A stretch of DNA of 59,908 nucleotides, taken from positions 1 through 59,908 of the IMG/VR virus record IMGVR_UViG_3300033141_003139; one strand, given 5' to 3'. Below, piece after piece: positions 20,746 to 50,916 of the stretch. The translations under genes were made by a program, and so were the position numbers. This stretch comes from a virus (Duplodnaviria; Caudoviricetes). Under the pieces are notes generated by a model. The model saw only the letters and a program-made list of their open reading frames with translations. It did no database searches and had not been told where the DNA came from. Positions within the stretch are counted from its first letter, which is position 1; every line of letters starts with the position of its first letter.

Positions 20746-21654
20746 ATGGCTAAACCAAAAATAATAAGTCTTACTTATAGTTCCCAGGACGCATTCTGGC
20801 ATTGTCCGATGAAGTACTACTGGAGTTACGAGGAACAAATAGCTACGTTAGTTCCAGCTGTCTACTTCGTGGTGGGTGGTGCAGGGCACGCTGGACTTGC
20901 CTCACTTCTTGCTAATAACAACGTAGAACTAGCTGAAAAGGCTGTCCAGAATTATTTTCGTGGTATACGCAAGTATGACCCTCCGTGGGATCCCACCAGG
21001 TATTGCCAGATGACACGAGCGTTGATACGGGCATACAGTCAGCAATACAGCCCCGTTCGTCTTGAAGAAGGTGAAGGACCTTTCAGCTTTGAACTAGGCG
21101 AAGTTGATGGGCATACGCTGGTCATTGAAGGACGCTTCGATGCTATCCAGAAAAAAGGTCGTAAACGTGAACTCATCGAGCACAAGTTCCTGGAATCGAC
21201 TTTACCAGATGACGAGGCATTGCTGTCGATGGATCGCCAGGTCACCACGTATATAATGGGAGCCAGGGAAGATCGCAACTGGAAGCTGTCAGGCGTTACT
21301 TATAACATTATATACAAGCCTAACATGTCATCTCGTACCAAGTGGACACGGCGGAAGGATAATGAAAGCTGGGAGCAGTATACCAATAGAATTGCCGAGC
21401 ATATTCTGAAATATCCTGGCAAGTACTTTGATCGAATACGAATGAAGAGGAACTCCAAGGATATTCAAGAACTTAAGCAGCATTATTTTTATACGGCTCA
21501 TCGTATCCTAAAATGTCGCCGTGACAAAACATGGGCCAAGCCATCCAGCATCTTTCGTTGTCGTTTCTGTGAATTCAAGCCGCTTTGCTTAGGACGGAAA
21601 GGAGCATCAAAGAAGTTTCGGAGAAAGACGGCGTTGCATGAGGAGCTAGAATGA
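20746..21654 (+). CDS. PD-(D/E)XK exonuclease (Cas4/AddB-like)
   Basis: CPMKYY, GRFDAI, IEHK, Q...Y and C-terminal CRFCEFKPLC. Confidence 0.85.
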   Translation: MAKPKIISLTYSSQDAFWHCPMKYYWSYEEQIATLVPAVYFVVGGAGHAGLASLLANNNVELAEKAVQNYFRGIRKYDPPWDPTRYCQMTRALIRAYSQQYSPVRLEEGEGPFSFELGEVDGHTLVIEGRFDAIQKKGRKRELIEHKFLESTLPDDEALLSMDRQVTTYIMGAREDRNWKLSGVTYNIIYKPNMSSRTKWTRRKDNESWEQYTNRIAEHILKYPGKYFDRIRMKRNSKDIQELKQHYFYTAHRILKCRRDKTWAKPSSIFRCRFCEFKPLCLGRKGASKKFRRKTALHEELE

Positions 21655-21878
21655 GTCAAAGCGATCTGCATATTATTGATAACTTGCTCTTAGCAATGCT
21701 ACAAACAGAAGAAACCCATGATATTGAAGTTCTTAAGCGGCATTGGGGTAGTTGCGTCTATGATGCACTTGACAGACTCCACGAAGCTTGGAACAGTAGA
21801 GAGATGAAATCTATTACTGCTACCTGGTCTATCTACTTCGCCAAGTTGGATGGGACCCCTTATGAAAGGCTGGAATAA
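21651..21878 (+). CDS. Hypothetical protein
   Basis: Coupled ORF. Confidence 0.5.
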   Translation: MSQSDLHIIDNLLLAMLQTEETHDIEVLKRHWGSCVYDALDRLHEAWNSREMKSITATWSIYFAKLDGTPYERLE

Positions 21879-21993
21879 TAGACATAATGACACCTGAACA
21901 TCCTCGTTGCTATAGAGAATGGGCATAAGGAGATAGCAAGACTATTAAGTACACACATGAAATACAGGAAGTTCCCTGATATAGGAGACCTGA

Positions 21994-22797
21994 ATGCCAA
22001 GACTTAAACTAGCAAAACCTGTCTTCGAGATACCAACGAAAATAACAGACTACCTTGTACTAATACACGGGGGCCCAGGCATCGGTAAAAGTTCTTTTGC
22101 TGCCCAAACGCCTGACCATTACATCTTCGACTTCGAGCATGGTTACAAGGCTCTGCCATATCGAGGCGAGTTCATCTCCAATGGATGGACTGGAGATGTA
22201 CCATCAGGTGCTCCCTTCGAGCATATGTGGGATGTGTTAGCCCTTTGTAAAGATGCCAAAGACATAACAACAATTATCATAGACCCAGCCGAAGCTTGGT
22301 TCGAGATGGTCTGTGCCTACGTTTGTTCAAATTCAGGGACTACTCACATTAACACAGGGCCCCTCAAATATGGCGTAGGATATAAATTCGCTTGCGATGA
22401 AATCCGTAATATATTAAACGAGACGCAAAACTTAGGCATGAACGTGCTTCTGGTGAGCCACTCCAGGGAGATTGAGATTGAAGAAGGAGATCTTAAGTAC
22501 TCCAAGTCCGTCCCTGATTTTCCCGCGTCAGCAAGGAAGGTGCTTATGGACCTTCCAGACTTGGTTCTTTACTTCGGCTGGGAACGGTTCGATGAAAAAG
22601 GAGAAGTTCTCGAAGAGCCAGAACGCCACATCTACGCACAACCATCTGAAGATTTCGAGGCGAAATCCCGTATCATGTCGTTTGAAGGTTGTAGCATGGG
22701 CAACAGCCCCCAGGAAGCCCGTGCTAACTTCGAGGCAGCATTCGAGAAAGCAATAAAGCAGGAACAAAAAGCCTGGGGTTCTAAAAGGAGGAAATAA
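21994..22797 (+). CDS. Sak4-like (AAA_24) recombination ATPase
   Basis: GGPGIGKS Walker A, DFEHG, IIID, LLVSH. Confidence 0.85.
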   Translation: MPRLKLAKPVFEIPTKITDYLVLIHGGPGIGKSSFAAQTPDHYIFDFEHGYKALPYRGEFISNGWTGDVPSGAPFEHMWDVLALCKDAKDITTIIIDPAEAWFEMVCAYVCSNSGTTHINTGPLKYGVGYKFACDEIRNILNETQNLGMNVLLVSHSREIEIEEGDLKYSKSVPDFPASARKVLMDLPDLVLYFGWERFDEKGEVLEEPERHIYAQPSEDFEAKSRIMSFEGCSMGNSPQEARANFEAAFEKAIKQEQKAWGSKRRK

Positions 22798-22800
22798 CCA

Positions 22801-23235
22801 ATGAAGAATAGGAACTTGGCACACAGCGACAATTGGGCTACACCAAAAGCATTGTACGATAAGCTGGACGCCGAGTTCCATTTCAACTTTGATCCTTGTC
22901 CGTTGCACGATGGTCCAATTGCTCCTGAACAAGATGGCCTGCTCATACCGTGGGGAACTCGGAACTTTATCAATCCGCCATACAGCCGAAAACTAAAGGA
23001 GGCATTTGTACACAAGGCTGTCGAAGAGGCCGCAAAAGGCAAACTATGTGTGATGTTACTACCAGTGAGTACTAGTACCGTGCTTTTCCACGAATGGATA
23101 CAGCCGAATGCAAGCGAGATTCGATTCTTAAGAGGCAGGGTAAAGTTTTCAGGTTATAATACCAAGGGTGAATGGGTGACGGACAAGGCAGGTATGCATG
23201 ATAGCATGGTTGTGATTTTTGATGGGAGGAAGTAA
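22801..23235 (+). CDS. Phage DNA N6-adenine methyltransferase (Dam-type)
   Basis: WATP, FDPC, FINPPY, IRFLRGRVKF. Confidence 0.85.
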   Translation: MKNRNLAHSDNWATPKALYDKLDAEFHFNFDPCPLHDGPIAPEQDGLLIPWGTRNFINPPYSRKLKEAFVHKAVEEAAKGKLCVMLLPVSTSTVLFHEWIQPNASEIRFLRGRVKFSGYNTKGEWVTDKAGMHDSMVVIFDGRK

Positions 23236-23432
23236 TGGAAGCAACGGTCGAAGGTAACGAGTTGACCTTGAAAATCCACCTGGCGAAGCTGGACGAGGCT
23301 CCGATTTCCAAGCAGGGTAAATCTCGTGTAGTAGCTTCATCACATGGATTTCAGCACTTGGTGGTCTATGAAGGAGCATCATTGGCCATCAATTACAATA
23401 TCACTGCTCCAATTACACAGAAAGGGCAATAG
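23235..23432 (+). CDS. Small conserved hypothetical protein
   Basis: SKQGKSRVVASSHG motif; coupled. Confidence 0.6.
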   Translation: MEATVEGNELTLKIHLAKLDEAPISKQGKSRVVASSHGFQHLVVYEGASLAINYNITAPITQKGQ

Positions 23433-23434
23433 AC

Positions 23435-23962
23435 ATGGCAAGACGTAGTTCAAAACCGAAGTCGGAATTTACTGGATTGACAGCGGCATGGAAGAAAACC
23501 AAGGCAAGAGAACGTCCTGACTTCACTGACCTGCCTGTAGGCTCTTACCAGTTTGAGATCACGAATGCTGAAGTCAAGGAGACCAAGGCTGGTAACTCGC
23601 TCCGGTTGTGGGCGACGTGCGTAGTTGTCGGTGGCGATTATGAAGGTCGCACCACGACTAAGAGCTGGACGCTGGCATCTATCGAATTGAAACCAGCTGG
23701 CCGTGGCAGTAAAACGAAGGTCAAGAGCTATGAATGGGACGAGATGGGCCTTGAATACCTGATGACCGACATGATTACGTTGGGCATCGCTGAAGACGAG
23801 AAAGATGCCCGCACGTTCGACCCCGCCACAGAAGTAGCAGAGGCAATGGTGGGATTGGTCTTCGATGGAGCTATCGTAGAAAGTAAGAAGGTCGACAGGG
23901 ATGGAAAGCCTTATCGTAACATTTACGTCAATGGCTTGGTAACTGAAGAGCATAGACTCTAA
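23435..23962 (+). CDS. DUF669-like single-stranded DNA-binding protein
   Basis: FTDLPVGSYQFEITNAEVKETKAG...GDYEGR; next to the Sak4-like gene. Confidence 0.75.
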   Translation: MARRSSKPKSEFTGLTAAWKKTKARERPDFTDLPVGSYQFEITNAEVKETKAGNSLRLWATCVVVGGDYEGRTTTKSWTLASIELKPAGRGSKTKVKSYEWDEMGLEYLMTDMITLGIAEDEKDARTFDPATEVAEAMVGLVFDGAIVESKKVDRDGKPYRNIYVNGLVTEEHRL

Positions 23963-23981
23963 GTCCAGTAACTTAAAAGGT

Positions 23982-24052
23982 GCCTGGGGCTTCTTCATTG
24001 CATTATCTCCTCGATGCAACAGACAAGAGAGAAGCCCCAGGCCATAGGAGAT
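23982..24052 (+). promoter_or_regulatory. Structured leader upstream of the queD-like gene
   Basis: 13-bp stem GCCTGGGGCTTCT/AGAAGCCCCAGGC; inner stem TTGCAT/ATGCAA; its loop ATCTCCT is complementary to AGGAGAT at the SD. Confidence 0.5.
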
Positions 24053-24057
24053 TATAT

Positions 24058-24411
24058 ATGCCGCCGTTATTCACGTTCAAAACAGAAACCACGTTTCAAG
24101 CTGCTCATGACATCGAAGGGATGCATGGTCATACCTGGAAGGTTGAAGCTACTTTTCTGTTCAGTGTGATCAACCCTGAGACTAATAAGGTAGCTGATTT
24201 CACGCTTTACAAGGAGGCCCTCGATAATGTAGCAAGAAAGGTTCATAATACTATTCTCAACGAAGCATTAGCAACAGCTCACCCTACCGCAGAGAAGCTC
24301 TGCTTGTGGTTCAGTGAGCAGCTTAAAGCAGAAGGTTATCCACCGCGTGAAGTGACTATTTACGAAGGAGATGAGTCCAGCGTATCGTATCGCATTGAAC
24401 GCTCTCTTTAG
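24058..24411 (+). CDS. queD: QueD/6-pyruvoyl-tetrahydropterin synthase-like T-fold protein
   Basis: FQAAH, HGHTW, DF, LNE, PTAE and VTIYE motifs. Confidence 0.8.
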   Translation: MPPLFTFKTETTFQAAHDIEGMHGHTWKVEATFLFSVINPETNKVADFTLYKEALDNVARKVHNTILNEALATAHPTAEKLCLWFSEQLKAEGYPPREVTIYEGDESSVSYRIERSL

Positions 24412-24414
24412 CTA

Positions 24415-24681
24415 ATGACACCCCGCATACTAATATCCTGGCATTCCCTTGACCAGTTGAGTTTACGTGGCCTTGACTTCTGGCAGCGCCACAGTGACCC
24501 CAACGAGGGTATGGTTACTTTTCTCAAGCGAAAGGCCGTCGAAGCCTGTCACCAAGGTGACGTGCTTGAACATATCAAGGGTATTGCCAAGGTATCGTAT
24601 GCGGGGTATATTTGGATCTTCAGGACAAGTGATGACCCACGAACATATTACTTGAAAACGCTCTACAAGAGAAACTCATAG
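24415..24681 (+). CDS. Hypothetical protein
   Basis: ORF abutting polA. Confidence 0.55.
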   Translation: MTPRILISWHSLDQLSLRGLDFWQRHSDPNEGMVTFLKRKAVEACHQGDVLEHIKGIAKVSYAGYIWIFRTSDDPRTYYLKTLYKRNS

Positions 24682-26550
24682 ATGGCTACTGATAATTTCG
24701 ACCTCGAAGAATTTGTCGCTTTTGATACTGAAACCACCGGCCTTAAGATGTGGCATCCACCAGGCGTCAGCGTCTTGACTTACTCGTCGAAGGACTGCTG
24801 TGGGAACGTTACTATTTCAGATAAGACCGAGGGTCTTTCACCTGAAAACCTTACCAGGTTGGTTAAGGAGACAGCCAGTTACAAAATGCCATTTGCGCAT
24901 AACTTAAAGTATGATCTGAGCGTGCTGGATGCCAATGGCGTAGACATTTCCTTGCTGGATCATGCTAACTGTACCATGCTGATGGCTCACCTTAGCAATG
25001 AGCACGAAGCATCACTACAGCAGGAAACCTTGTATGTAAGAAAACTAGGGCTTCCAGTAGATGATGCCGACGAGATGGACGCCTGGTTGAAAGAGCATGG
25101 TCTTACCAAGGGCGAAATGGTGAAAGTACCACCCAGGATACGCAAAAAATATGCAGTAGGCGACGTGCATCGTTGCTTGAGCCTGGGTGTACATTATGCT
25201 CCAATAATCAACCGCCGTGATTACAAGACTGAAATGCAAGTACTTCGTATTCTCATCAAAATGGAAAAGCGTGGCATCTTGCTAGACATATCTAAAGTCG
25301 AGGCTATTAGACAAAAGACACAACGGCAACTGGCCCGTCTTATCAGGAAATGGGGTCTTATTGACGCTGGTCCTTACTGGAAGCTCGAACGAGAATTACT
25401 CCACGAGGGATATAGCATCAAGAGAGCACGACAGAAAGCCAGTAACAAGATGAAGAAAGCTATCAACGACGCCGGTGGTATCAACCTGGGAAGTTCAGCA
25501 CAGGTTGGCAGCGTATTGCTCCAGGAGGGTTTCGCCCTTGAAGAGCTTCACAAAACTGAGACTGGAGCCATATCTGGTGCTGGTAAACACATGAAAGAAC
25601 TGGCACGACAGGGCAGCAAGGTAGCAAAAGCACGTATTGTTTACATGCAGTTAGGTAAATTACTAGGCACTTACCTTGACCAGTTGGAAGATGCTGCTGA
25701 TTGTAACTCGGTTATACATACCAACTACAACCAGACCGTGACTGTTACGGGCAGGTTGAGCAGTGATAACCCTAACCTGCAAAACGTGGCTACAGATGAA
25801 GGTCCTTACAAGGGAGTTCGTGAGCTATTTATATGCAGGCCAGGACACGAGTTGTTTTTTATCGACTATCGTGGCCTCCAGCTTAGGATTGCTGCTCATT
25901 ATGCCAGGGACGAGATCTTCCAGGATATTGTGTCTAATCATGACGATGTTCATGGAGCCGTAGCTAAAATGGTCGGATTGACGGGTAAGCGTGGTCGACT
26001 CCAAGCTAAAGGCGTAGTATTCGGCACCCTGTTCGGACGAACCCCTTACGGCTTATGGAAAGACCCATCATTAAAGCTGAAAAGCCTGGATGATGCAGAA
26101 CGACTCAGGGCTAAAGTACTAGGCTTCATGCCAGGGCTTGAGCGTAAGATACGAGAACTCCAAGAGGAATATGCTGCTTGTGGACACATTGAAGATGATT
26201 TTGGCAGGTTATACAGGCCGCTTGAACTAAAGGACTTGCTCGTGAACCTCGTTCAGGGTACTGAGGCAAGTCTCGTAAAGCGTGCCATGGTAAAGACTTA
26301 TCCAGTTGTAACAGACTTCGGTGGTCATACAATCCTGCAAATACACGACGAAATAGTATTCGAGGTGCCGATGAAAGGAAAGCGTCTTGCCAGTCGCCGC
26401 CGTAAAATAGCGACTGCACTAGGAGCCGCTATGGTAGAAGATGCACGACACCTGGAAGTACCATTAAAGGTACAAGTAAAAGTTACACAAACAAATTGGG
26501 CAGAGGCTGCAACCATATTACAATTTGATAGCAACAAAGGAGTATGTTAA
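24682..26550 (+). CDS. polA: Family A DNA polymerase with 3'-5' exonuclease
   Basis: FDTETTGL, HNLKYD, TGRLSSDNPNLQN, DYRGLQLR, AKGVVFG, IHDEIVFE. Confidence 0.95.
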   Translation: MATDNFDLEEFVAFDTETTGLKMWHPPGVSVLTYSSKDCCGNVTISDKTEGLSPENLTRLVKETASYKMPFAHNLKYDLSVLDANGVDISLLDHANCTMLMAHLSNEHEASLQQETLYVRKLGLPVDDADEMDAWLKEHGLTKGEMVKVPPRIRKKYAVGDVHRCLSLGVHYAPIINRRDYKTEMQVLRILIKMEKRGILLDISKVEAIRQKTQRQLARLIRKWGLIDAGPYWKLERELLHEGYSIKRARQKASNKMKKAINDAGGINLGSSAQVGSVLLQEGFALEELHKTETGAISGAGKHMKELARQGSKVAKARIVYMQLGKLLGTYLDQLEDAADCNSVIHTNYNQTVTVTGRLSSDNPNLQNVATDEGPYKGVRELFICRPGHELFFIDYRGLQLRIAAHYARDEIFQDIVSNHDDVHGAVAKMVGLTGKRGRLQAKGVVFGTLFGRTPYGLWKDPSLKLKSLDDAERLRAKVLGFMPGLERKIRELQEEYAACGHIEDDFGRLYRPLELKDLLVNLVQGTEASLVKRAMVKTYPVVTDFGGHTILQIHDEIVFEVPMKGKRLASRRRKIATALGAAMVEDARHLEVPLKVQVKVTQTNWAEAATILQFDSNKGVC

Positions 26551-26900
26551 TGTATTTAAGAGACTTGATAACTTTCCTGGAAGAAGAGGATCCAACTCGA
26601 ATATTACCAGTAGGATTCAAGCGTCCCCACAGTTACAGGGGAGACTACTCTGAACTTGCATTCCAGCCAGCCCTGAATGTATCGGTCAAGGACATGCTGG
26701 AGGATGCCAAGTCCGCTCTGGGTCGTGAGTTTACTGGTTACAAGGGAGGCGAATATAAAATGCATGAATACACAGAATGTTACCTGGCTCATTATGGCCG
26801 CACGGGAGGGTTGATCAGCCCAATACTTCTTGCTTTTATGTTGGGTAAAACACAAGATGAAATCGCTGAGATAGCCATGCGCACAGACTGGCTTTTGTAG
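26544..26900 (+). CDS. Conserved phage hypothetical protein
   Basis: PHSYRGDYSELAF and FTGYKGGEY motifs. Confidence 0.7.
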   Translation: MLMYLRDLITFLEEEDPTRILPVGFKRPHSYRGDYSELAFQPALNVSVKDMLEDAKSALGREFTGYKGGEYKMHEYTECYLAHYGRTGGLISPILLAFMLGKTQDEIAEIAMRTDWLL

Positions 26901-26918
26901 TAGACACGGGTACAAGTT

Positions 26919-27536
26919 ATGAGCAACTTGAAATATCTTCGTAACTGGACAACAAGACTCCATAAGTGTGAAGCCTGTGAGTATCGAAGCCAGGCGTTAC
27001 GACCAGTGGGCACACGTGGTAATCCAGATAGCCCCGTAATGATAGTCGGTATGAACCCAGGTGTTACTGAGAACTGCAAGGGTATACCCTTCGTAGGGCC
27101 AGCAGGTCGAGAACTCGACAAGGTGCTGGCGTTCTGGGGTATTGAAGATCCTATCATTACTAACGTCTTGAACTGTTACGTTTATGATAACGCTATACTT
27201 ACACATGATGCAATGGACTTTTGCTCTAAGAAATGGTTACTGCCATTGATACGCAATCTCGATCCCAAACTGATTATAGGTCTTGGTGCCTGGGCAGCTG
27301 TTGAGTTATTAAAACATGCTGGCGAGACTGAGTTGGCTGCAAAGTCAGTAGGCAAACTTGCTGGCATGATGAAGCCGATTAAGCTCAAGGGCTGGCGCGG
27401 GTATCTTGCTATTACATATCATCCTGCCTACATGTTACGATCGAGAGGAAAAACTGGAGCTAAAGCTACCAACAAGTTCTGGGATGCAGTACGACAGTTA
27501 CGTTTGCCCATACAGGAATTACTACATGAAAGTTAA
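26919..27536 (+). CDS. Uracil-DNA glycosylase, family 4-like
   Basis: CEAC, VGMNPG, PFVGPAG, TNVLNC, TYHPAY. Confidence 0.9.
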   Translation: MSNLKYLRNWTTRLHKCEACEYRSQALRPVGTRGNPDSPVMIVGMNPGVTENCKGIPFVGPAGRELDKVLAFWGIEDPIITNVLNCYVYDNAILTHDAMDFCSKKWLLPLIRNLDPKLIIGLGAWAAVELLKHAGETELAAKSVGKLAGMMKPIKLKGWRGYLAITYHPAYMLRSRGKTGAKATNKFWDAVRQLRLPIQELLHES

Positions 27537-30793: not shown

Positions 30794-31012
30794 ATGATTA
30801 CAGTATTATTCATCAATAATAGTGGTGGTGGTTTTGCAGACTATGTTACCATTGAGCCTAACGTGAGTGTCGGTGAATTCTTTATATCTCACATGGGTGG
30901 TAACCCCGCTGACTTCATGATTCGTGTTAATCGCCAGCCAGTGGCGAGAGATTACGTCTTGAAGGAGGGTGATCGTATCACCATTACCCCAACAAAAATA
31001 GATGGTGCTTAA
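30794..31012 (+). CDS. Ubiquitin-like (ThiS/MoaD beta-grasp) protein
   Basis: [22 protein letters not shown]; ends in KIDGA. Confidence 0.85.
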
Positions 31013-31027
31013 GCAAGGATAACCATC

Positions 31028-31065
31028 GGGGGGCGTATCCTCAAGGGGGTACGCCTCCCTTTTTT
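31028..31065 (+). terminator. Terminator/attenuator after the Ubl gene
   Basis: GGGGGGCGTATCCTC/GGGGGTACGCCTCCC stem plus T6. Confidence 0.7.
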
Positions 31066-31078
31066 ATAGGGGTTATAG

Positions 31079-32131
31079 ATGGACAAACAATTACTTATGA
31101 TTTCTAAGCTGGTACATAAGGCGTTGATAAAACGCTATCTTGACAGGTACCGCATAATAGAATATTGTACAAACGAGATTGCTAACTTATCAAAACAGAT
31201 GGCTTGTAAAGGCCAACGTCACAAGCATTATTTAGCTCTCGAAGAGATTGACAACGCTACTAAAATTGCGTATGGCATTGCAAGTAGGACTAATACTTTA
31301 CAACGCTATACAGGGGATTTATCTTCAGCTTTATCCAGGCTGAAAGCCCCACGGGACCAACGTTATATCTACAAGGATTTAGTAGCCCTACAACAGGAGT
31401 TCGATGTTGTTGGTTACGATCATAACAGCCGGTGTTTAGGTGTTACTACTGAGCCTATAATTTTACATGGTATTAACCTGGGTCCGTTCAGCATTGAATT
31501 GATGATAGACGCCCTTCCCTGTCCTGATGATTCATGTTGTTGTAGAGTCGTAGCATTGTCCCCTAATCCTTCATCTTGTAATGAGTATGTAACCCATCCG
31601 CACGTAGAAGAAGAGACGATTTGCCTTGGCCAAGCGAAACAAGCTGTTGCTGAAGCGCTGGACGATAGTCGTATACTAGATGTATTCATGCTTATTGCAG
31701 GAGTACTACGCAACTATAACAGTGATTCTCCTTTCGTGAAACTGGAAAACTGGTATGGTGAACCCTGTTATAATTGCGGCGCTATTTGTGATAATAACTC
31801 TGAACTTCACACATGTGAATTTTGCGAGCATTTATTTTGCCCTGATTGTATAGGCACATGCGGATATTGTTCAGCGAGCGTATGTGTAAATTGCATGGAA
31901 TACTGCAACACTTGTGAAGAGTATTACTGTTCCAACTGCGTTTGTGTGTGTCCTCATTGTGAGAGACCTGTTTGTACTGCCTGTTTAGAAGGTGACGGCT
32001 GTGTATGCCAGGAGGAGTCTGAAAATGTTCAACAAGTGGCTTCAGTTCAAGAAAGAACCCAAGGTGTTGCCACCCAAGACGTTCAAGCAGCAAGTGGACA
32101 CTGGACGATCCAGTATCGTCCTGCAACCTAA
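31079..32131 (+). CDS. Prokaryotic E2-like conjugating protein with C-terminal CxxC repeats
   Basis: HPHVEEETICLG (E2 HPN...C-like); many CxxC pairs; lies between Ubl and JAB. Confidence 0.7.
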   Translation: MDKQLLMISKLVHKALIKRYLDRYRIIEYCTNEIANLSKQMACKGQRHKHYLALEEIDNATKIAYGIASRTNTLQRYTGDLSSALSRLKAPRDQRYIYKDLVALQQEFDVVGYDHNSRCLGVTTEPIILHGINLGPFSIELMIDALPCPDDSCCCRVVALSPNPSSCNEYVTHPHVEEETICLGQAKQAVAEALDDSRILDVFMLIAGVLRNYNSDSPFVKLENWYGEPCYNCGAICDNNSELHTCEFCEHLFCPDCIGTCGYCSASVCVNCMEYCNTCEEYYCSNCVCVCPHCERPVCTACLEGDGCVCQEESENVQQVASVQERTQGVATQDVQAASGHWTIQYRPAT

Positions 32132-32141
32132 AGGAGCACAC

Positions 32142-32942
32142 ATGAAGAAAATGAACGATACTATCCTGCGGTTTACACCTACGGCCTGGGCCAAGCTCTT
32201 GTTTTTCAGGGATCTCGGCAAAACAGAAATAGGTGGCTTTGGTATAACGAAACCAGATGACCTTCTGTTGGTCACCGATTTTGTTACTGTTAAACAGAAT
32301 GTTAGCATGGCCAGTGTAAAATTTGATGATACAGCTGTTGCTGACTTTTTTGAAGACCAGGTGGCTGCCGGTCGTCATCCAAGAGAATTCGCACGTATAT
32401 GGGTGCACACCCATCCGATGATGAGTCCTTCGCCCAGTGGAGTAGACGAGGAAACTTTCGAGCGTGTGTTTGGTAGTTGTGATTGGGCTATTATGTTCAT
32501 AATAAGCTCTACTTCTAAAACCTACTGCAAGTTGTATCTCAACGTTGGGCTGAGTATTGCTATTGACATCCCAGTTGAGGTCAGCTATACAAATGAATTC
32601 GGCCCTAGTGATTTTGCCGCCTGGAAAGCAGAGTACGAGGCTAATATATGCAAGGAAGTCTACAGCATCAGCAAGAAACATACTAGTAAAGTATTCAAGG
32701 ACGGCATTTGGAGTGAGGAACCAGGATCACTTGACGATGAAATTTTTGATGATGATGACGATGATGATGATGATGATACAATTGACGTTGCCGAAGGGTT
32801 GGTTATCAATGAACAATACGATGATGAACCTCCCATGGAATGGGCTGAAGAACTAGAGGCAATGACCGAAGAAGAACGAGCTGAATTCTTGCAGGATCTA
32901 TATGATTATCCAGACGAATTAAGGAGTAGCAAATGGATGTAA
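32142..32942 (+). CDS. JAB/MPN metalloprotease (alternative start at 32025)
   Basis: EIGGFG...WVHTHP..SPSPSGVD JAMM motif; acidic tail. Confidence 0.85.
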   Translation: MKKMNDTILRFTPTAWAKLLFFRDLGKTEIGGFGITKPDDLLLVTDFVTVKQNVSMASVKFDDTAVADFFEDQVAAGRHPREFARIWVHTHPMMSPSPSGVDEETFERVFGSCDWAIMFIISSTSKTYCKLYLNVGLSIAIDIPVEVSYTNEFGPSDFAAWKAEYEANICKEVYSISKKHTSKVFKDGIWSEEPGSLDDEIFDDDDDDDDDDTIDVAEGLVINEQYDDEPPMEWAEELEAMTEEERAEFLQDLYDYPDELRSSKWM

Positions 32943-33598
32943 TAGCAGATGAACGTTATAGCAGGCAAGCTGACATAATCCCAGCTGAAAAACTGGATGA
33001 AATAAAGCCCACTGTTATAGGGGTTGGAGCCATAGGCAGGCAGGTTGCATTGCAACTTGCAGCAATCGGAGTGAGTAGTCTCCAATTGATTGACCATGAC
33101 ACAGTAGAAGAAAGCAATATAGCCAGCCAGGGTTTTTATGAGACGGATATGTCCTGCTGGAAGGTTGATGCTGTAAAGCATACATGTACAAGCATCAATT
33201 GCCTGCTGCAAGTGGAAGCGAAGCATGAGCGTTTCAAACGCAGTCATACCGTGGGCAACATTGTATTTTGTTGTGTTGATGATATACAGACACGTAAGAT
33301 GGTAAATGATGTTGTCCACGCTGACTTATTTATTGATGGCCGCATGTCAGCTGAAGTGCTCAGGGTTCTAACTGTATGGGACTTCAAGACGAATGATTAC
33401 TACAAGGGAACGTTATTTACTTCAGAAGAGGCTTATGCTGGTTCATGCACGGCCAAGACGACTATTTACTGTGCAAATATAGCAGCGGCCTTGATGGTAT
33501 CCCAGTTGACCAAGTGGTTGCGAAGGATACCACTTGAACGAGATTTTACATTGAATATACTAACGAATGAACTTACGCTGGGAAATCCAGAAGGATAA
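32933..33598 (+). CDS. ThiF/E1-like activating enzyme
   Basis: RYSRQ, GVGAIG, DHDTVEESNIASQ, CVDDIQTR, DGRM, GSCT. Confidence 0.92.
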   Translation: MDVIADERYSRQADIIPAEKLDEIKPTVIGVGAIGRQVALQLAAIGVSSLQLIDHDTVEESNIASQGFYETDMSCWKVDAVKHTCTSINCLLQVEAKHERFKRSHTVGNIVFCCVDDIQTRKMVNDVVHADLFIDGRMSAEVLRVLTVWDFKTNDYYKGTLFTSEEAYAGSCTAKTTIYCANIAAALMVSQLTKWLRRIPLERDFTLNILTNELTLGNPEG

Positions 33599-34042: not shown

Positions 34043-34315
34043 ATGAATTACTTTGCGTGGTATGGCACTGTATTGGGCAATGACGGGCATACTCTTGGCC
34101 ACACGGTCAACGGTCAAGTTGTCCGAGCATCGGCCCGCATCCCGCTGGGTCGCTGGCTGTGGCTCGCTGAATCACGACGATCATGGCGTAACATGACAAT
34201 GAAGGAAACCGTTGAATGCGTGGGGGAATATTATCGGTGGACTCATCCTGAGATTGATTGGGAACATTACGATTGGGAGCAATACAGTAAGAAACAGAAG
34301 GAGAAGTATCATTAA
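34043..34315 (+). CDS. Hypothetical protein
   Basis: Purine-rich RBS region upstream. Confidence 0.5.
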   Translation: MNYFAWYGTVLGNDGHTLGHTVNGQVVRASARIPLGRWLWLAESRRSWRNMTMKETVECVGEYYRWTHPEIDWEHYDWEQYSKKQKEKYH

Positions 34316-35114
34316 CATTAACCTGAACGTCCTCAAAGCTGAACCAGCTAAAGAATACTATGCCAAGGCAGGCGAATATCTCACCAGCCCACAATTGCTG
34401 GATTTTATGAAGTGTCCTTGGCTGTACCACAAGAAGCAGCTCGGTCTAATAGCTGAAGAGTACACGTCCGTACTACTGATCGATAGTGCCGCTCGCTGTC
34501 GGATTCTCGAAGGTCGGGACGCCTATGAGGCACAGTTCGCTTTCGATGGCCCCATCGATCCCAAGACGAACAAACCCTTCGATTCGAAAATAAAGGCCTT
34601 CGCTGAGTGGGCACATGCCCAAGGTAAACCCGTGCTGCCGCACGATCAGGCCGAACTCATCGAGCAGATGGCTTCCGGCGTCGCCATGAACGACGAGGCT
34701 GTTGACCTGCTGCTGTATGGCCGAGCTGAAGGCGTTGTTCGTGCTGAGTATTGTGGTGTGCCGTGTCAGATTCGCATTGATTGGATGCATCCACAGCGAG
34801 GTATTGTGGATTTCAAGACTTGCGATGACCTGACGTGGTTCGAGGCGGATGCCAGGCGTTACGGCTACCACTGGCAGATGGCGTTCTACCGTGCTATCCT
34901 CGCCCAACCTCTCGACGGTTTACTGGTGCCGGTTCATCTCGTCGCAGTCGAGAAGAAAGAACCCTTCCGCTGTGGTGTGTGGAGTGTCAGCGATGACACG
35001 CTGGCCATCGCCCAACGCGAGAACGAGGCGGCGATCCGTCGACTGGTGAATTGTCGTAAGCAAGATCATTGGCCAACCGGCTACGAGGAGGTCCGCATCC
35101 TCGACATTGCATGA
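34308..35114 (+). CDS. PD-(D/E)XK exonuclease VIII-like (DUF3799-type) protein; start uncertain
   Basis: CQIRIDW, IVDFKT, YHWQMAFY, AVEKKEPF. Confidence 0.8.
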   Translation: MININLNVLKAEPAKEYYAKAGEYLTSPQLLDFMKCPWLYHKKQLGLIAEEYTSVLLIDSAARCRILEGRDAYEAQFAFDGPIDPKTNKPFDSKIKAFAEWAHAQGKPVLPHDQAELIEQMASGVAMNDEAVDLLLYGRAEGVVRAEYCGVPCQIRIDWMHPQRGIVDFKTCDDLTWFEADARRYGYHWQMAFYRAILAQPLDGLLVPVHLVAVEKKEPFRCGVWSVSDDTLAIAQRENEAAIRRLVNCRKQDHWPTGYEEVRILDIA

Positions 35115-35163
35115 ATCTTTGAACATGGTTAATATTAAAACTCTAACTTCGAGGAGATTGACA

Positions 35164-35865
35164 ATGGCTAACCTGAATGGATTTGACGCACGCACTGTTG
35201 AACCTGCTGTTGCTATTGATCTTGAACCGATCCCTGCTGGCAAGTATATTGCTGCGATCACCGAAAGCGAGATGAAACCTACCAAGAGCGGATCAGGCAG
35301 TTATCTCCAACTGTCCTTCACCATCCTGAAAGGCGAGTACAAGAACCGTGTCCTCGGGGCGCGGCTGAACCTTTATAGTCCTAATGCCACGGTAGTCGAG
35401 AACGCACGAGCGGAACTGTCGGCGATCTGTCACGCGGTCGGTGTATTGACGCCGAAGGACTCAGTAGAACTTCATAACTTGCCGCTAATAATCACGGTCA
35501 AGATTGTAAAGCGTTTCGATACAGGTGACTTGGTCAATGAGATTATAGGCTACGCCGAAAGGAAAGTTGCGGTCCATCAGATTCAGCGGACTTTTCCTGC
35601 TGATGACGTCGAAAAGGTTGATACAGAGAGTGTATGCACTTGTAAGATGCTTCCCTCTGATTATATGATCGATAAGATGCAAGCTGACGGATATGTTTTG
35701 ATGAATGCGTTTGTTGATCGCTTCGGTCTCTATGATTTGACTTTTCATCGTTGGGATAACGGTGATATTATTTCAGTAGACAGTGCTGAGACGTGGCGAG
35801 ATGCAATCTGTAATATATATGCAAAATTCTTGAAAAGTAGGAGTACCACTGATGGCAGAGAATGA
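35164..35865 (+). CDS. Second DUF669-like SSB with an unrelated C-terminal extension
   Basis: MANLNGFDA..EP..IPAGKY..SEMKPTKSGSGSYLQL; GAGGAG RBS. Confidence 0.8.
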   Translation: MANLNGFDARTVEPAVAIDLEPIPAGKYIAAITESEMKPTKSGSGSYLQLSFTILKGEYKNRVLGARLNLYSPNATVVENARAELSAICHAVGVLTPKDSVELHNLPLIITVKIVKRFDTGDLVNEIIGYAERKVAVHQIQRTFPADDVEKVDTESVCTCKMLPSDYMIDKMQADGYVLMNAFVDRFGLYDLTFHRWDNGDIISVDSAETWRDAICNIYAKFLKSRSTTDGRE

Positions 35866-36085: not shown

Positions 36086-36379
36086 ATGTCACATCCGTTA
36101 GTAGTGCACTGTAAGAAGTCGAAGTTTGACGTTTACATAGGTAGACGGTGCGGGAGCTTTCCAGCAAGTTTCTGGGCGAATCCCTTTCGTATTGGTAAGG
36201 ATGGAACGAGAGAAGAGGTGATTGAGAAATATAAACAGCGCCTTCTAAATTCTCCAGTTATGCTCAAGAGGCTTGGGGAATTAAAAGGCAAAGTTCTTGG
36301 CTGTTGGTGTGCTCCTCTTCCTTGTCATGGGGATGTGTTAGCTGAGATGGCTAACGAAAGTGAGGAACAAGGAGAATAA
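36086..36379 (+). CDS. DUF4326-like protein
   Basis: DVYIGR..WANPF..LGCWCAPLPCHGDVL. Confidence 0.9.
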   Translation: MSHPLVVHCKKSKFDVYIGRRCGSFPASFWANPFRIGKDGTREEVIEKYKQRLLNSPVMLKRLGELKGKVLGCWCAPLPCHGDVLAEMANESEEQGE

Positions 36380-36380
36380 G

Positions 36381-36758
36381 ATGACCTACAAGGAGATGTT
36401 GCCGCTGATGGGGCAGATTGTTACAGTAAGAACAACGCTAAGACGATACCACGAAGGTAATTATGGCAGGGTGTGGCGCTCTGTCCCTTGTCACAAACCT
36501 TGGGCAGGCTGGGTTGTAGGTTTCAGGCACAAACACAATGGGACTGTTGATCATCCTTTTTATCATGCTATGCTCGGCAAATCTACACCCTTCACTATAA
36601 TTAGTAGTATCCCTTGTATGATGGTTGCTCCCTGCCCCACGATGAATGCAATACCTGTGCCGCTTGATGGATACGAGTTAGGCGGCAAGCCTGAACCACC
36701 TGACAATGGAGGTTGGCGTAGTTATAAGGCATTCGCAAAGGAGCCAGAAAATGAATAG
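36381..36758 (+). CDS. Hypothetical protein
   Basis: AAGGAG RBS. Confidence 0.6.
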   Translation: MTYKEMLPLMGQIVTVRTTLRRYHEGNYGRVWRSVPCHKPWAGWVVGFRHKHNGTVDHPFYHAMLGKSTPFTIISSIPCMMVAPCPTMNAIPVPLDGYELGGKPEPPDNGGWRSYKAFAKEPENE

Positions 36759-36993
36759 CAACTCAATGCTTTTCCTAGATTTTGAGTCACCAAAGACGAT
36801 AATTGCTATGCAGCAAATGCTCGATAGGCTCAGACTCCGTCGAGTGCGGAAAGTAGTTATTAGTCTTGAGTATTTCGAACATCTTCGTGTTGCTCAACGA
36901 AAAGTCGAGCAGCTCAGAGCAATCCTGGAAGATACGGACAAAATCACTATCTCCGAAGAGGAACAAAGGAAGCTTTGTGATGACGAAGAATGA
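36751..36993 (+). CDS. Hypothetical protein
   Basis: AAGGAG RBS; coupled. Confidence 0.5.
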   Translation: MNSNSMLFLDFESPKTIIAMQQMLDRLRLRRVRKVVISLEYFEHLRVAQRKVEQLRAILEDTDKITISEEEQRKLCDDEE

Positions 36994-37411
36994 AACGAAA
37001 GCAAAATGGAACTTGATAAAATATGAGTTTAAGATGCTGCGTGCAACAGCAGAAAACATTCACGGAACGGGCGATTATCAACAGCCACAGTTGAATGCCT
37101 TCCTTGAGTCATTCTTGATTCATGCTCGTAACTTGATCACATTGTTTTTCATCGAAGGAAAAGGTGATGATATTACGGCAAGAGATTTCTTGAGCGACAA
37201 AGGTCAAGCTGAATGGGCAGACTATAGCCTTCGCTCTGGCCTTAGAAAACAGTATTTATGTAAATTACTTCGCCCAATCAATAAAAGGCTTGCTCACATA
37301 ACCAGCTACAGATTGAAGCATTCAGACAAAGAGTGGTTCACATGGGATATTTGGCTTAATATTTCTTATTACTGGGACAAGTTTTTGTCGATCAAAGGAG
37401 AAGAAAAATGA
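36980..37411 (+). CDS. All-helical protein, possibly HEPN-like
   Basis: ESFLIHARNL...INKRLAHIT. Confidence 0.5.
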   Translation: MTKNETKAKWNLIKYEFKMLRATAENIHGTGDYQQPQLNAFLESFLIHARNLITLFFIEGKGDDITARDFLSDKGQAEWADYSLRSGLRKQYLCKLLRPINKRLAHITSYRLKHSDKEWFTWDIWLNISYYWDKFLSIKGEEK

Positions 37412-37860
37412 GCATTATAAATAGATTCAGAGGCAAGTACAGTTTTCTCTCTAACTTTGCTGCCGCCGATGTAGAATTAGATGGTAAGATATATCGGACG
37501 GTAGAACATGCATACCAAGCAGCTAAAACTTGTGATCCTTTTATTCGTTTCGAGATTAGAACTCAACCGACGCCTGCTGATGCCAGGCGACTTGGTCGTA
37601 AGGTTAAACTACGCGATGACTGGGAGTCAAGAAGACTTCAAGTCATGCGAGATTTGCTTTACAAGAAGTTTCAGAGAGCGGATTTGAAGGAACTGCTGTT
37701 ATCAACTGGTGACAGTGAACTTGTAGAAGGCAACTACTGGCATGATAACTATTGGGGTTCGTGTGAATGTTTCAAATGTTCTACTTGTTTGCACCAAAAT
37801 CATCTTGGGAAGTTGTTAATGGAAGTTAGGACACAACTCAGGAGGAGCACAAATGGCTAA
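37408..37860 (+). CDS. NADAR family protein
   Basis: FLSNF, TVEHAYQAAK, ARRLGR, LLSTGD, WHDNYWG, NHLGKLLMEVR. Confidence 0.92.
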   Translation: MSIINRFRGKYSFLSNFAAADVELDGKIYRTVEHAYQAAKTCDPFIRFEIRTQPTPADARRLGRKVKLRDDWESRRLQVMRDLLYKKFQRADLKELLLSTGDSELVEGNYWHDNYWGSCECFKCSTCLHQNHLGKLLMEVRTQLRRSTNG

Positions 37861-38152
37861 GTATCGAAAGAAACCAGTAATCGTCGAAGCAGAGCAATTT
37901 CTTCCTCCGCATAACTGGCCTGAGTGTGTTGAACCTCTGATAGTTTATCGTGGCGTAAGTTCTGCATTATGCGAGGAATGCCACCTTCGTTTCAGCGAGT
38001 CAGAACATGGATGGATATGTACCCGCGAAGGTCTACGAATTGTCTGTCCAGGAGATTGGATTATTACTGGTGTTGAGGGCGAGAAATATCCTTGTAAACC
38101 TCGTATCTTCAGGAAGTCATACGAGCTTGTTGAAGAAGGAGAGAGCGAATGA
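37853..38152 (+). CDS. Conserved phage protein (PGDWII motif)
   Basis: KYRKKPVIVEAEQ..PGDWIITGVEGEKYPCKP. Confidence 0.8.
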   Translation: MAKYRKKPVIVEAEQFLPPHNWPECVEPLIVYRGVSSALCEECHLRFSESEHGWICTREGLRIVCPGDWIITGVEGEKYPCKPRIFRKSYELVEEGESE

Positions 38153-38739
38153 ATTTACTTATATTGGTCACCGTTTCGCTTATAGGAAATGCAATGGATT
38201 TTCGTCATGACGTAAACGGCGATTGTGTAGTGAATGTTCTTGACATCATGGTAATAAGAGCTAACTTAGGCAGAGAAGGAAGTAGTATCGTCCCTACAAC
38301 AGCTGATGTTAATAGAGATGGCGTCTGTAATATGGTCGACTTATTGGCAGTGAGAAGCCAACTTGGAACCTTGTTAGAGAGGGTGTCCGTCTCAGAAGAA
38401 GATCATCGGCCTTTCTATTTCATCAGTGCTTATGAGAGCGGTAGCAAGGTGAGGCGTCTTTGGCATCCAGAACATCGCAACATCCTTTGTTATGTAGGTC
38501 AAGAACTGCCTCTTGTATGGAGCAGACAGTATTTATCTCCTGTGGTAGTTGAGGGAGTGAGATTTTGGTTGAATGACGCAGACGGTCCAGCATTGTTCGC
38601 TTCGATAGAGAATGCAGAGAAACTAATCAAAGTCTATGCCTGGCACAATAAGGCAGATATGTATGAAGTGCAAGAACTTAGAGTAGTGTCTCGTTGGAAG
38701 ATTACAAGAGACATGGGATTTACATATCCCTGGGATTGA
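38149..38739 (+). CDS. Secreted protein with a dockerin-like domain
   Basis: N-terminal hydrophobic signal; paired DVNGDCVVNVLD and DVNRDGVCNMVD Ca-loop repeats. Confidence 0.75.
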   Translation: MNLLILVTVSLIGNAMDFRHDVNGDCVVNVLDIMVIRANLGREGSSIVPTTADVNRDGVCNMVDLLAVRSQLGTLLERVSVSEEDHRPFYFISAYESGSKVRRLWHPEHRNILCYVGQELPLVWSRQYLSPVVVEGVRFWLNDADGPALFASIENAEKLIKVYAWHNKADMYEVQELRVVSRWKITRDMGFTYPWD

Positions 38740-48875: not shown

Positions 48876-48891
48876 TTACAAGGGAGAAAGT

Positions 48892-50244: not shown

Positions 50245-50896
50245 GCCTAAGCAGATAGACTTCGTATTGTCTACGCTGGAACAGCAAACGCTAAAGCCTG
50301 TTATTTTTGTATGGAATAACGGACAACCAAGACTATTTCCTACTGCTGACTGGGTTGTCCAGTCGAATCAGAACATAGCGTGTGTCGCCAGCTGGATGAT
50401 GCTGACACGAGCGGAAACAGACTATATTGGAACCATTGGGGATGACGTACTTGTATGTGATACCCAGGTACTGGAACATGCCGTTGATTTTCTCAGCAGG
50501 CAGGATGATCCAGATATGATAGTAGGAGCAGCCGGTGTCAGGTTAAAAGCAGGTAAGACCTATGGAGATTCTGATCATATTCATTGTTGTAGTAATTTTG
50601 GCTTTGTCAAGGGAGAAATGGCCGCTCCAGTTGACGTTGTTAAGGGATGGTTCAGTATCATGCGGCGTGATGTATTAGCCAAGGTGCCGCGCATGATAGA
50701 TAGAGGCTTCATCGAAGATGACATTTTTGTGAGCGGGCATGCTGCTCGTGGTGAAAAAGGCAAGCATAGGGTACTGGGAATGTTACGTGGCCGATGCAAA
50801 GATCTTTTTGATACAAGTGATGTTGCTCTTTGTAGTCGAAAAGATCATTTGTTACGTCGGGAATTGGCCCGTCGTAAATATTGTTTTGGTTTGTAG
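50201..50896 (+). CDS. GT-A (GT2-like) glycosyltransferase
   Basis: LNWNRP, VWNNG, GDD, EDDI. Confidence 0.7.
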   Translation: MSKPTLTMAVLNWNRPKQIDFVLSTLEQQTLKPVIFVWNNGQPRLFPTADWVVQSNQNIACVASWMMLTRAETDYIGTIGDDVLVCDTQVLEHAVDFLSRQDDPDMIVGAAGVRLKAGKTYGDSDHIHCCSNFGFVKGEMAAPVDVVKGWFSIMRRDVLAKVPRMIDRGFIEDDIFVSGHAARGEKGKHRVLGMLRGRCKDLFDTSDVALCSRKDHLLRRELARRKYCFGL

Positions 50897-50916
50897 TTGA
50901 AAAAAGGGAGAAGATA

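Follow-up and report, generated by a model that had tools for sequence, protein, structure and literature searches.

We analyzed the 59,908-nucleotide (nt) virus record IMGVR_UViG_3300033141_003139, called the window below to mean that whole stretch of DNA, and focused on four adjacent plus-strand genes at 30794-33598 that are predicted to form a ubiquitin-like conjugation cassette. The first gene (30794-31012) encodes the 72-amino-acid (aa) precursor of a beta-grasp ubiquitin-like tag (Ubl) that ends ...TPTKIDGA, and it is followed by a terminator-like stem-loop on the same strand (31028-31059). Next come a 350-aa, three-part protein resembling the E2 carrier enzymes of ubiquitin conjugation (31079-32131), a JAB/JAMM metallopeptidase (32142-32942; 266 aa, or 316 aa if read from the GTG at 31992, from which the frame is open), and a minimal, single-domain E1 activating enzyme of the ThiF/MoeB type (32933-33598; 221 aa). 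The Ubl and E2 genes are 66 nt apart, the E2 and JAB genes 10 nt apart when JAB is read from the ATG at 32142, and the JAB stop and E1 start overlap by 10 nt. A preliminary description of this DNA had listed the same Ubl-E2-JAB-E1 order with a set of active-site motifs, and we confirmed both the coordinates and the motifs. Only E1 among the four proteins reaches the cut-off of a curated library. In the 168-nt gap 5' of the Ubl gene we found no sigma-70-like promoter on the plus strand, using a consensus that may not be the host's. A 299-aa minus-strand open reading frame (ORF) at 31782-32681 was rejected as a gene because it lies opposite conserved plus-strand frames.

The window is the whole virus record, rated 100% complete with direct terminal repeats by CheckV, and an exact 114-nt repeat is present at both of its ends (1-114 and 59795-59908). 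The plus strand holds all of the long ORFs. These include genes for a Mu-type major head protein, portal, large terminase and head protease, as well as replication and recombination genes for a family A DNA polymerase, a Sak4-like protein, PD-(D/E)XK proteins and two DUF669 single-strand-binding proteins (SSBs). With capsid, portal, terminase and polymerase genes in a complete, terminally repeated record, the cassette can be called phage-encoded, as the preliminary description had it. The same description took the phage to be apparently non-integrating, and there the support is partial: a Pfam scan of 89 window ORFs (79 + 10 ORFs) detected no domain of an integrase, recombinase or repressor, which is compatible with a non-integrating phage and falls short of proof. 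We infer the placement of the cassette in an early region, also taken from that description, only from the adjoining replication and recombination genes.

The Ubl was described as a beta-grasp protein, and its ESM Atlas model bears this out, with template modelling (TM) scores of 0.83/0.87 to the ThiS/SAMP2 families and 0.82 to each of the ubiquitin-like families Ub-RnfH and Ub-Mut7C. A search of the Protein Data Bank (PDB) with the Ubl profile returned only designed helical repeats, plus MoaD at E=0.086. Across 75 family members the consensus reads ...LIRVNRQPV...L.EGDRV..TPTKIEGA, after which there are 0 to about 10 unrelated residues; the C-terminal end of the window protein is exactly Gly71-Ala72. 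Both residues are invariant in a 44-row alignment, and each is present in 74 of the 75 sequences.

The stem-loop past the Ubl gene consists of a 14-bp stem with 9 G-C pairs and a 4-nt loop, and is followed by the T-run TTTTTTAT. It belongs to a feature that is widespread in the family, in that the median energy of the best hairpin in the 110 nt past the Ubl stop is -27.1 kcal/mol over 70 loci, versus -16.7 kcal/mol for 420 random windows taken from the same loci. Values of -20 or lower occur at 60 of the 70 loci (86%), compared to 23% of the random windows and 52% of the windows past the E1 stop, and at 54 of the 70 loci the hairpin outdoes all six of its random windows. The difference in strength from random windows is significant (Mann-Whitney p=2e-24), with the reservation that the loci are related and the test therefore overstates their independence. 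The stem sequences vary between loci, and 32 of the 70 have a tail of four or more T. The stem-loop is probably a partial terminator or attenuator, or else an mRNA stabilizer, that would give an excess of tag over enzymes. The stem-loop, the coiled-coil and Cys array of the E2 protein, and the mobile planctomycete family to which the cassette belongs all go beyond what the preliminary description listed.

The E2-like protein is the least conventional member of the set. In the AlphaFold model of the full protein (predicted local distance difference test, pLDDT, 87), residues 3-86 (nt 31085-31336) form a helical hairpin; residues 90-228 (nt 31346-31762) form a predicted ubiquitin-conjugating (UBC) fold core, with a helix, a beta-meander and two helices at 94-211; and residues 230-310 (nt 31766-32008), a Cys-rich array on the same plus strand, form short hairpins and are followed by a low-confidence tail. 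The full protein has no family match in Pfam (E≤0.1), PHROG, NCBIfam or PADLOC, and none of 33 E2 family members matches the Pfam models UQ_con or Prok-E2_A to Prok-E2_E at E≤0.05. In canonical E2 enzymes an HPN-type motif is followed about 8 residues later by the catalytic Cys. The preliminary description had pointed to an HPH..ICLG motif, and this is the most constant part of the family: H173-P174-H175 together with the candidate catalytic C182 (nt 31622-31624) and G184 (C182-x-G184) is invariant in 33 of 33 and 64 of 64 homologues, in the form V-T-H-P-H-V...C-x-G.

Since whole-protein structure searches with VIA-align were dominated by the N-terminal helical hairpin, we folded residues 90-228 alone. 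The resulting core model is confident (pLDDT 90.7, predicted TM score 0.86) and shows a helix (5-18), a run of strands and two further helices (95-106 and 110-122). Searched against the PDB with Foldseek, all of the matches listed for the core are ubiquitin-conjugating enzymes, with EhUbc5 as the best (E 0.011, probability 0.99, TM 0.53/0.50). VIA-align against 48,161 chains placed UBE2S at the top (Z 7.2, root mean square deviation 3.8 Å, 123 of 139 residues), and the matches listed are mostly E2, UEV and RWD domains, with BubB at Z 5.3. The neighbours of the ESM Atlas model are similar: UQ_con/RWD at TM 0.54, Prok-E2_B/ThiF at 0.52 and UEV at 0.51. BilB and Cap2 are missing among the matches listed by Foldseek and VIA-align, which is no evidence of a difference. 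Whether ORF 31079 has an E2 fold had been set beforehand as the point on which the idea of a conjugation system could fail. The E2 scores are moderate but uniform, and His and Cys occupy the expected active site, so this test does not refute the E2 assignment. Among viral structures in BFVD, the best matches to the core are three proteins of 420-590 aa, A0A516LW79, A0A516KZW4 and A0A516M3P8 (E 7e-4 to 4e-3, probability 1.00), which rank ahead of giant-virus E2 enzymes; judging from these models, other viruses may carry related E2-like domains.

The array that follows the core holds nine CxxC pairs and, at its end, a CxC pair, ten in all (230/233, 246/249 ... 308/310), and from the second pair on they keep a CxxC-x4-CxxC-x3 rhythm. 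Thirteen Cys positions, from C230 to C308, are nearly invariant in the alignment of 33 homologues, and the same pattern is present in 64 sequences, with extra Cys repeats in some relatives. By count, ten pairs could suffice for about five Cys4 zinc sites. A profile search found weak likeness to B-box and RING domains (Midline-1 B-box at E=5.8e-4; TFIIH p44 and the RAG1 RING at E>0.01), Foldseek gave weak local matches to FYVE, PHD and LIM domains, and Pfam Prok-RING had no match in E2. Many of the homologues end, past an acidic linker, in a conserved stretch of about V-H-x-x-G-L-G-Q-A-x-V-P-A, of which the window protein has a weak version.

In the JAB protein the JAMM motif (E..HTH..S..D) noted earlier is conserved with canonical E..HxH-x7-S-xx-D spacing, E79 being present in 70 of 70 family members and H139, H141, S149 and D152 in 69 of 70 each. 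Because family conservation starts at residue 59 of the longer frame, the ATG at 32142 is the likely start. The conserved stretch N-terminal to the JAMM Glu is only about 25 residues long, and the C-terminal tail is acidic and non-conserved. JAB matches the PADLOC JAB model at E=4.8e-5, and its best profile match in the PDB is 6fjv, an Rpn11-like JAMM protein (E=0.012) that aligns motif on motif and that we take to be a Caldiarchaeum entry.

E1 is the most readily recognized of the four proteins, with one Pfam ThiF domain at residues 19-199 (E=7.4e-23; 81.4 bits vs a cut-off of 28.1). The GxGxxG motif and candidate catalytic Cys that had been reported for it were both found to be conserved: G30/G32/G35, D54, D116 and R121 are retained along with an RxxRQ motif, and C172 (nt 33446-33448), within a G-x-C-T motif, is present in 66 of 66 sequences and is the only invariant Cys of the protein. 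By our alignment with MoeB and ThiF, C172 presumably falls in the crossover-loop region of E1 enzymes. The E1 profile found UBA7 (4e-17), ThiF (5e-16), MoeB (6e-14), BubCD (8e-13) and Cap2 (1e-6) in the PDB, and also UBA1, UBA6 and UBA5. We modelled an E1 dimer with Ubl residues 1-71 and obtained an ipSAE interface score of 0.87, versus 0.02 for the best of three controls; as complexes of ThiF with ThiS and of MoeB with MoaD have been solved, this score shows likeness and may reflect those complexes and not binding. In the calibration of the tool, 116 of 157 solved complexes attain the ipSAE mark, as do 2 of 215 mismatched pairs. Contact agreement between runs was at least 93% and partner pLDDT at least 90. 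In the model, Ubl residues 65-71 contact E1 residues 116-118, 121, 137-144 and 162-176, adjoining Cys172.

The window cassette is one member of a large family. Besides the window protein, a word-indexed search turned up 32 E2 homologues, and when 1.84 billion cluster representatives were searched with a profile, 3442 matched at E≤1e-3, of which 1332 at E≤1e-30. Most of the best 150 have lengths of 330-450 aa, and nearly all of these 150 cover almost the whole profile in one stretch. To recover genomic context we searched bacterial and archaeal assemblies, one genome per species, with a back-translated DNA pattern of the E2 active site, which was found in at least 120 places. The set comprises 124 loci, 40 of which are stubs shorter than 700 bp, leaving 84 for the analysis of gene order. 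The order Ubl-E2-JAB-E1 is present at 60 of the 84 loci with flanking DNA, among the matches listed, and most of the others are cut by contig ends; linkage of the four genes is far beyond chance. We also noted apparent fusions of E2 with ThiF (P0033), of JAB with E1 (L074:6491-7678) and of Ubl with E2 (L055:5200-6240), in any of which a frameshift or assembly error is possible; such fusions would support functional linkage. At one locus, a gene about 3 kb 3' of the cassette encodes a further ThiF protein, distinct from E1 and carrying a DUF6791 domain (L072:10682-11869).

Among the matches listed, 76 of the 80 loci with a title are from Planctomycetota, including Pirellulales, Planctomycetaceae, Gemmataceae, Phycisphaerae (Sedimentisphaerales and Tepidisphaerales among them) and Kuenenia; the others are two unnamed bacteria, one Victivallales and one Thermodesulfobacteriota. 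IMG/VR holds three further copies, in two proviruses and one fragment, and the window terminase was not found in these three. A blastn search with the 2.8-kb cassette and tblastn searches with E2 and JAB against 50,697 phage records gave no matches, and neither did tblastn with E2 against 72,556 plasmids. The distribution in phages versus hosts, a point raised in the preliminary description, is mostly one of planctomycete genomes, with none in these deposited phage and plasmid genomes.

Among the matches listed, the neighbours of the cassette are co-directional arrays of small genes together with mobile-element and defence-type genes. The mobile genes include large serine recombinases (12 loci), a phrog_8638 AAA ATPase (14 loci), tyrosine integrases, transposases and an ArdC-like anti-restriction protein that is present at 3 loci, in one recurrent context. 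The defence-type genes include BrxL, AAA_15/21 ATPases, restriction-modification genes, a 1740-aa helicase-nuclease, a caspase, a HerA-like ATPase and a reverse transcriptase. Terminase, portal and capsid genes were not found in the sample of flanking proteins. As judged from sequence, the family is one that mobile elements spread around the Planctomycetota. Group II intron reverse transcriptase genes adjoin or lie near the cassette at six loci (L013, L023, L070, L077, L080 and L083). Some planctomycete assemblies have two or three cassette copies: L023 and L077 are on the same 3.8-Mb contig, and their E1 proteins are identical and their neighbours shared, as for a duplicated mobile element, and L006, L043 and L073 come from one assembly.

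The four cassette genes are the only ones of 88 window ORFs with relatives in the cassette loci, and profiles of 15 recurrent neighbour families have no match in the window, so the cassette appears to move as a unit. In the E1 tree the window copy falls in a group of 14 sequences (Shimodaira-Hasegawa approximate likelihood ratio test support 96), in which its nearest relatives are two planctomycete-assembly copies, one labelled Sedimentisphaerales, at 59% identity. Host classes are intermixed across the tree, with 27 label changes versus a minimum of 6. The cassette is missing from all 13 viral contigs that share the neighbouring exonuclease (62-75% identity), in which the exonuclease-SSB module is present, and from the sole relative of the upstream 413-aa gene. 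Given that these related phages are without it, we consider the cassette an accessory insert in this phage.

Taken together, we think it likely that the cassette is a self-contained and complete ubiquitin-like conjugation set, probably active and carried as an accessory by a tailed phage. The chemistry that we propose is drawn from conserved residues, from predicted folds, and from the behaviour of Bil and ThiF-type enzymes. The Ubl would be made as a precursor ending in Gly71-Ala72, or in longer tails in relatives, and JAB would trim Ala72, or the longer tails, to expose Gly71. A homodimeric ThiF-type E1 would then adenylate Gly71 and load the Ubl on Cys172 as a thioester, from which it would be handed to Cys182 of E2. 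The coiled-coil and multi-zinc extension of E2 would take the place of a separate E3 ligase and select the target, JAB would also remove the tag from conjugates, and the stem-loop past the Ubl gene would ensure that the tag outnumbers the enzymes.

The preliminary description had compared the cassette with Bil and with Cap2/Cap3 of the cyclic-oligonucleotide-based antiphage signalling system (CBASS). The analogy holds and membership does not, as the defining features of type I and type II Bil and of type II CBASS were not found. Type II Bil of Ensifer aridi (Iyer class 6c/CEHH) shares the order of Ubl, E2, JAB deconjugase and E1 genes and the cysteine-based E1 and E2, and its Ubl, too, is one beta-grasp domain in which a short dispensable tail follows a conserved Gly, Gly71-Ala72 in the cassette. 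According to excerpts of PMC10557695, the E. aridi Ubl ends in Gly97-Ala98 and is cleaved by JAB past the Gly, type II Bil is mostly found in Rhizobiaceae, and the E1 BilD has several domains, with active as well as inactive adenylation domains, a Cys domain as an insertion and a zinc site made up of four Cys. The cassette E1, by contrast, is a 221-aa single domain with C172 as its sole invariant Cys. BilB is a CEHH E2, and in class 6c a Cys replaces the classical His (PMC1779556), whereas the cassette E2 has a classical His-Pro-x...Cys site with coiled-coil and zinc-array extensions. No Bil model is among the PADLOC matches of the four proteins, the presence of such models in PADLOC being unconfirmed.

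Type I Bil (Collimonas, Iyer class 6d) is also a four-gene system of Ubl, E1, E2 and JAB, and it serves as our working model for a conflict role of the cassette, since it attaches its Ubl to the central tail fibre of phage, as the excerpted text of bioRxiv 10.1101/2023.09.04.556158 reports. The same excerpts describe its BilA as having two ubiquitin-like domains and ending in Gly, and class 6d enzymes have an E2 that uses a downstream His instead of the classical one and a JAB with an extra JAB-N domain (PMC1779556). In contrast, the cassette Ubl is a single 72-aa domain ending in GA, the classical His of E2 is kept, and the conserved part of JAB ahead of the JAMM Glu is only about 25 residues. 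Type II CBASS (Iyer class 6b) supplies the best PADLOC matches, its E1-E2 models for E1 (6.3e-12) and its JAB models for JAB (best 4.8e-5), with only the Rossmann part of the cassette E1 aligning. However, Cap2 is an E2-E1 fusion that conjugates the CD-NTase, a nucleotidyltransferase, whereas the cassette has separate E1 and E2 proteins and a Ubl gene, and no nucleotidyltransferase is among the Pfam matches of the window.

The Bub systems (6E/DUF6527) are bacterial operons of E1, E2 and Ubl, and their BubCD is a relative of the cassette E1, while BubB has the E2 fold in common with the cassette (Z 5.3). In the available portion of PMC11601596, Bub E1 and E2 have no catalytic cysteines and form oxyesters, and the peptidase is a DUF6527 serine protease. 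In the cassette, C172 and C182 are invariant and the peptidase is a JAB, and DUF6527 has no Pfam match in the window. The eukaryote-like, Caldiarchaeum-type operons of archaea and bacteria, with ubiquitin, E1, E2, small RING and Rpn11, as given in extracts of PMC5654768, likewise have separate E1 and E2 proteins, a zinc-finger element and a JAMM peptidase. They differ in that the cassette tag is ThiS-like and not ubiquitin-like in sequence, its E2 is missed by UQ_con, and its zinc array is fused to E2 and has no recognizable RING. Membership in PRTRC was rejected because, of the NCBIfam PRTRC models (ThiF, protein A and protein C), only TIGR03736 matches, at 34.8 bits vs a cut-off of 144.75, and E2 and Ubl match no PRTRC model; 6A-MBL was rejected for NCBIfam scores far under the cut-off. 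By all of these sequence comparisons, we place the cassette beside Bil, type II CBASS and Bub as a sister design that is a member of none.

A search of the published literature found nothing on this cassette or on any complete phage-encoded set of E1, E2, JAB and Ubl, so that the family is apparently undescribed within the literature searched. The studies of Burroughs et al. from 2008, 2009 and 2011 were outside that search and may cover related E2 or RING families.

What the phage would use such a system for is less certain than that it is a conjugation system. We favour a Bil-type weapon of conflict, in which the tag would go onto proteins of phages or elements that compete within one cell, over host take-over or counter-defence, and put its chance at a little under even. 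Tagging of the element's own proteins is unlikely, and some use other than those considered here is slightly less likely again.

The strongest competitor, which we hold to be possible and no better than tentative, is that the phage tags host proteins for take-over or counter-defence, such as host defence or proteolysis factors, or that it interferes with the cassettes of resident elements. The likely hosts commonly carry the family, and the Ubl tail TPTKI(E/D)GA is near-invariant, so that a resident element's Ubl could be a substrate for the JAB or E1 of the phage. The cassette also lies among replication and recombination genes, within about 3-4 kb of the NADAR and DUF4326 genes, and the recurrent ArdC-like context described above would suit this use. 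However, a decoy or a deconjugase alone needs neither E1 nor E2, and here the catalytic residues are intact in all four proteins. In addition, the bacterial E1/E2/JAB operons tested in the excerpted parts of PMC10557695 and PMC11601596 are all anti-phage. A bolder variant, which we regard as doubtful, is a phage ubiquitination pathway of new design. In it E2 would be its own E3, by virtue of the coiled-coil and an array of about five zinc sites, the stem-loop would be an attenuator, and a virulent phage would turn the system on its host, either by reprogramming or disabling host proteins or by subverting the copies that host elements carry. If true, bacterial viruses would have a parallel to those eukaryotic viruses that come equipped with ubiquitin machinery.

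A quite different account is that the Ubl is a sulfur carrier, only adenylated and thiocarboxylated in the manner of ThiS/MoaD or CysO-Mec+, for a cofactor or a thiolated base, with no tagging at all. The cassette does resemble ThiS-ThiF and MoaD-MoeB in its tag fold, in its E1 adenylation domain and, presumably, in having a minimal homodimeric E1; ThiS/MoaD are the nearest named families of the Ubl, ThiF/MoeB are the best NCBIfam rows of E1, and the phage has genes of DNA-modification type (PTPS/QueD-like, Dam and UDG-like). On the other hand, the ThiF/MoeB equivalogs score far under their cut-offs (the best, TIGR02356, has 67.5 vs 275 bits), the cassette always links E2 and JAB and has no partner biosynthetic genes, and an E2 with the invariant HPH...C is linked to the other genes at the 60 of 84 loci counted above among the matches listed. 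The preliminary description had stated that no sulfur-transfer or cofactor genes are nearby, and this was upheld in that the Pfam matches of the 89 window ORFs include no thiamine, molybdopterin, rhodanese or cysteine-desulfurase gene, the sole cofactor-type gene in the scan being the PTPS/QueD-like ORF at 23980-24411. No rhodanese, desulfurase, ThiG/MoaE or CysM-like gene was found in the window or among the recurrent neighbours. We therefore consider a pure sulfur carrier very improbable. Least probable of all is that the cassette is a decaying passenger taken from a host element and no longer of use to the phage, for although related phages are without it, the window E1 branch is long and the nearest E1 relatives are only 59% identical, all four frames are open, the catalytic and family-invariant residues are all kept, as are the stem-loop and the JAB/E1 start-stop overlap, and a 2.8-kb insert is costly in a packaged genome of 59.9 kb.

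Several of our results weigh against an active conjugation system used in conflict between elements. The position of the HPN Asn of E2 enzymes is a His in the cassette family, none of the Foldseek matches listed for the E2 core reaches E≤1e-3, and the top VIA-align Z of 7.2 is in the middling range for that tool. The ThiS match of the Ubl in Pfam (E=0.003) is under the curated cut-off, and so is the Prok-JAB match of JAB (E=7.5e-4; 19.8 bits vs 25). E1 has no recognized ubiquitin-fold domain for docking E2, so that transfer from E1 to E2 is assumed, and an E3-like function of the zinc array is a guess, its likeness to RING and B-box domains being weak. The long branch of the window E1 (0.66 vs a median of 0.28) could reflect relaxed constraint. 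As to the role, the defence-type neighbours come from 123 sampled flanking proteins, with no enrichment figure, and the ArdC-like gene at three loci and the NADAR and DUF4326 genes of the window would fit counter-defence too. Lastly, the phage host is probably a planctomycete, as indicated by the cassette relatives alone.

Elsewhere in the window we noted further genes that may bear on the biology of this phage. There are two recombination modules (20746-23962 and 34212-35865). Both encode a PD-(D/E)XK exonuclease together with a DUF669 SSB, and the first also has the Sak4-like ATPase. In the second module, most of the 13 related viral contigs carry a Sak4-like gene flanked by those of the exonuclease and the SSB; the window has none at that place. 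A Dam methylase, the PTPS/QueD-like protein, the family A polymerase and a UDG-superfamily protein are clustered at 22801-27536, which hints at modified bases in the phage DNA. The DUF4326 (36086-36379) and NADAR (37408-37860) genes lie about 2.5-4 kb 3' of the cassette. NADAR enzymes act on ADP-ribose adducts, and the stretch at 36086-37860 may be an anti-defence patch. An ERCC4 protein is also encoded in the window, and a dockerin-domain protein is encoded in its middle region (38149-38739). Directly past the portal gene, at 48832-51792, are a fusion of a methyltransferase with a PLOD-type glycosyltransferase and a GT2 glycosyltransferase, and these genes suggest that the virion may be glycosylated.

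Protein conjugation by bacterial operons of E1, E2, JAB and Ubl has been shown only recently, and the tested cases all defend against phages. The cassette adds a different architecture, represented by at least 1,300 sequence clusters, in which a minimal E1 is paired with an E2 that has the classical active site and, fused to it, a zinc array. The family is largely confined to mobile elements of the Planctomycetota, yet it is present in a complete phage genome, and if the cassette is active, ubiquitin-like tagging would extend to the virus side of the conflict. An active cassette would also offer biochemistry a very small set of E1, E2(E3), deubiquitinase and Ubl, in which the stem-loop, if our reading of it is true, would be a simple way of fixing the ratio of tag to enzyme. 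It would further add a lineage of E2 enzymes with the classical HPx...C site to the debate on the origin of eukaryotic ubiquitination.

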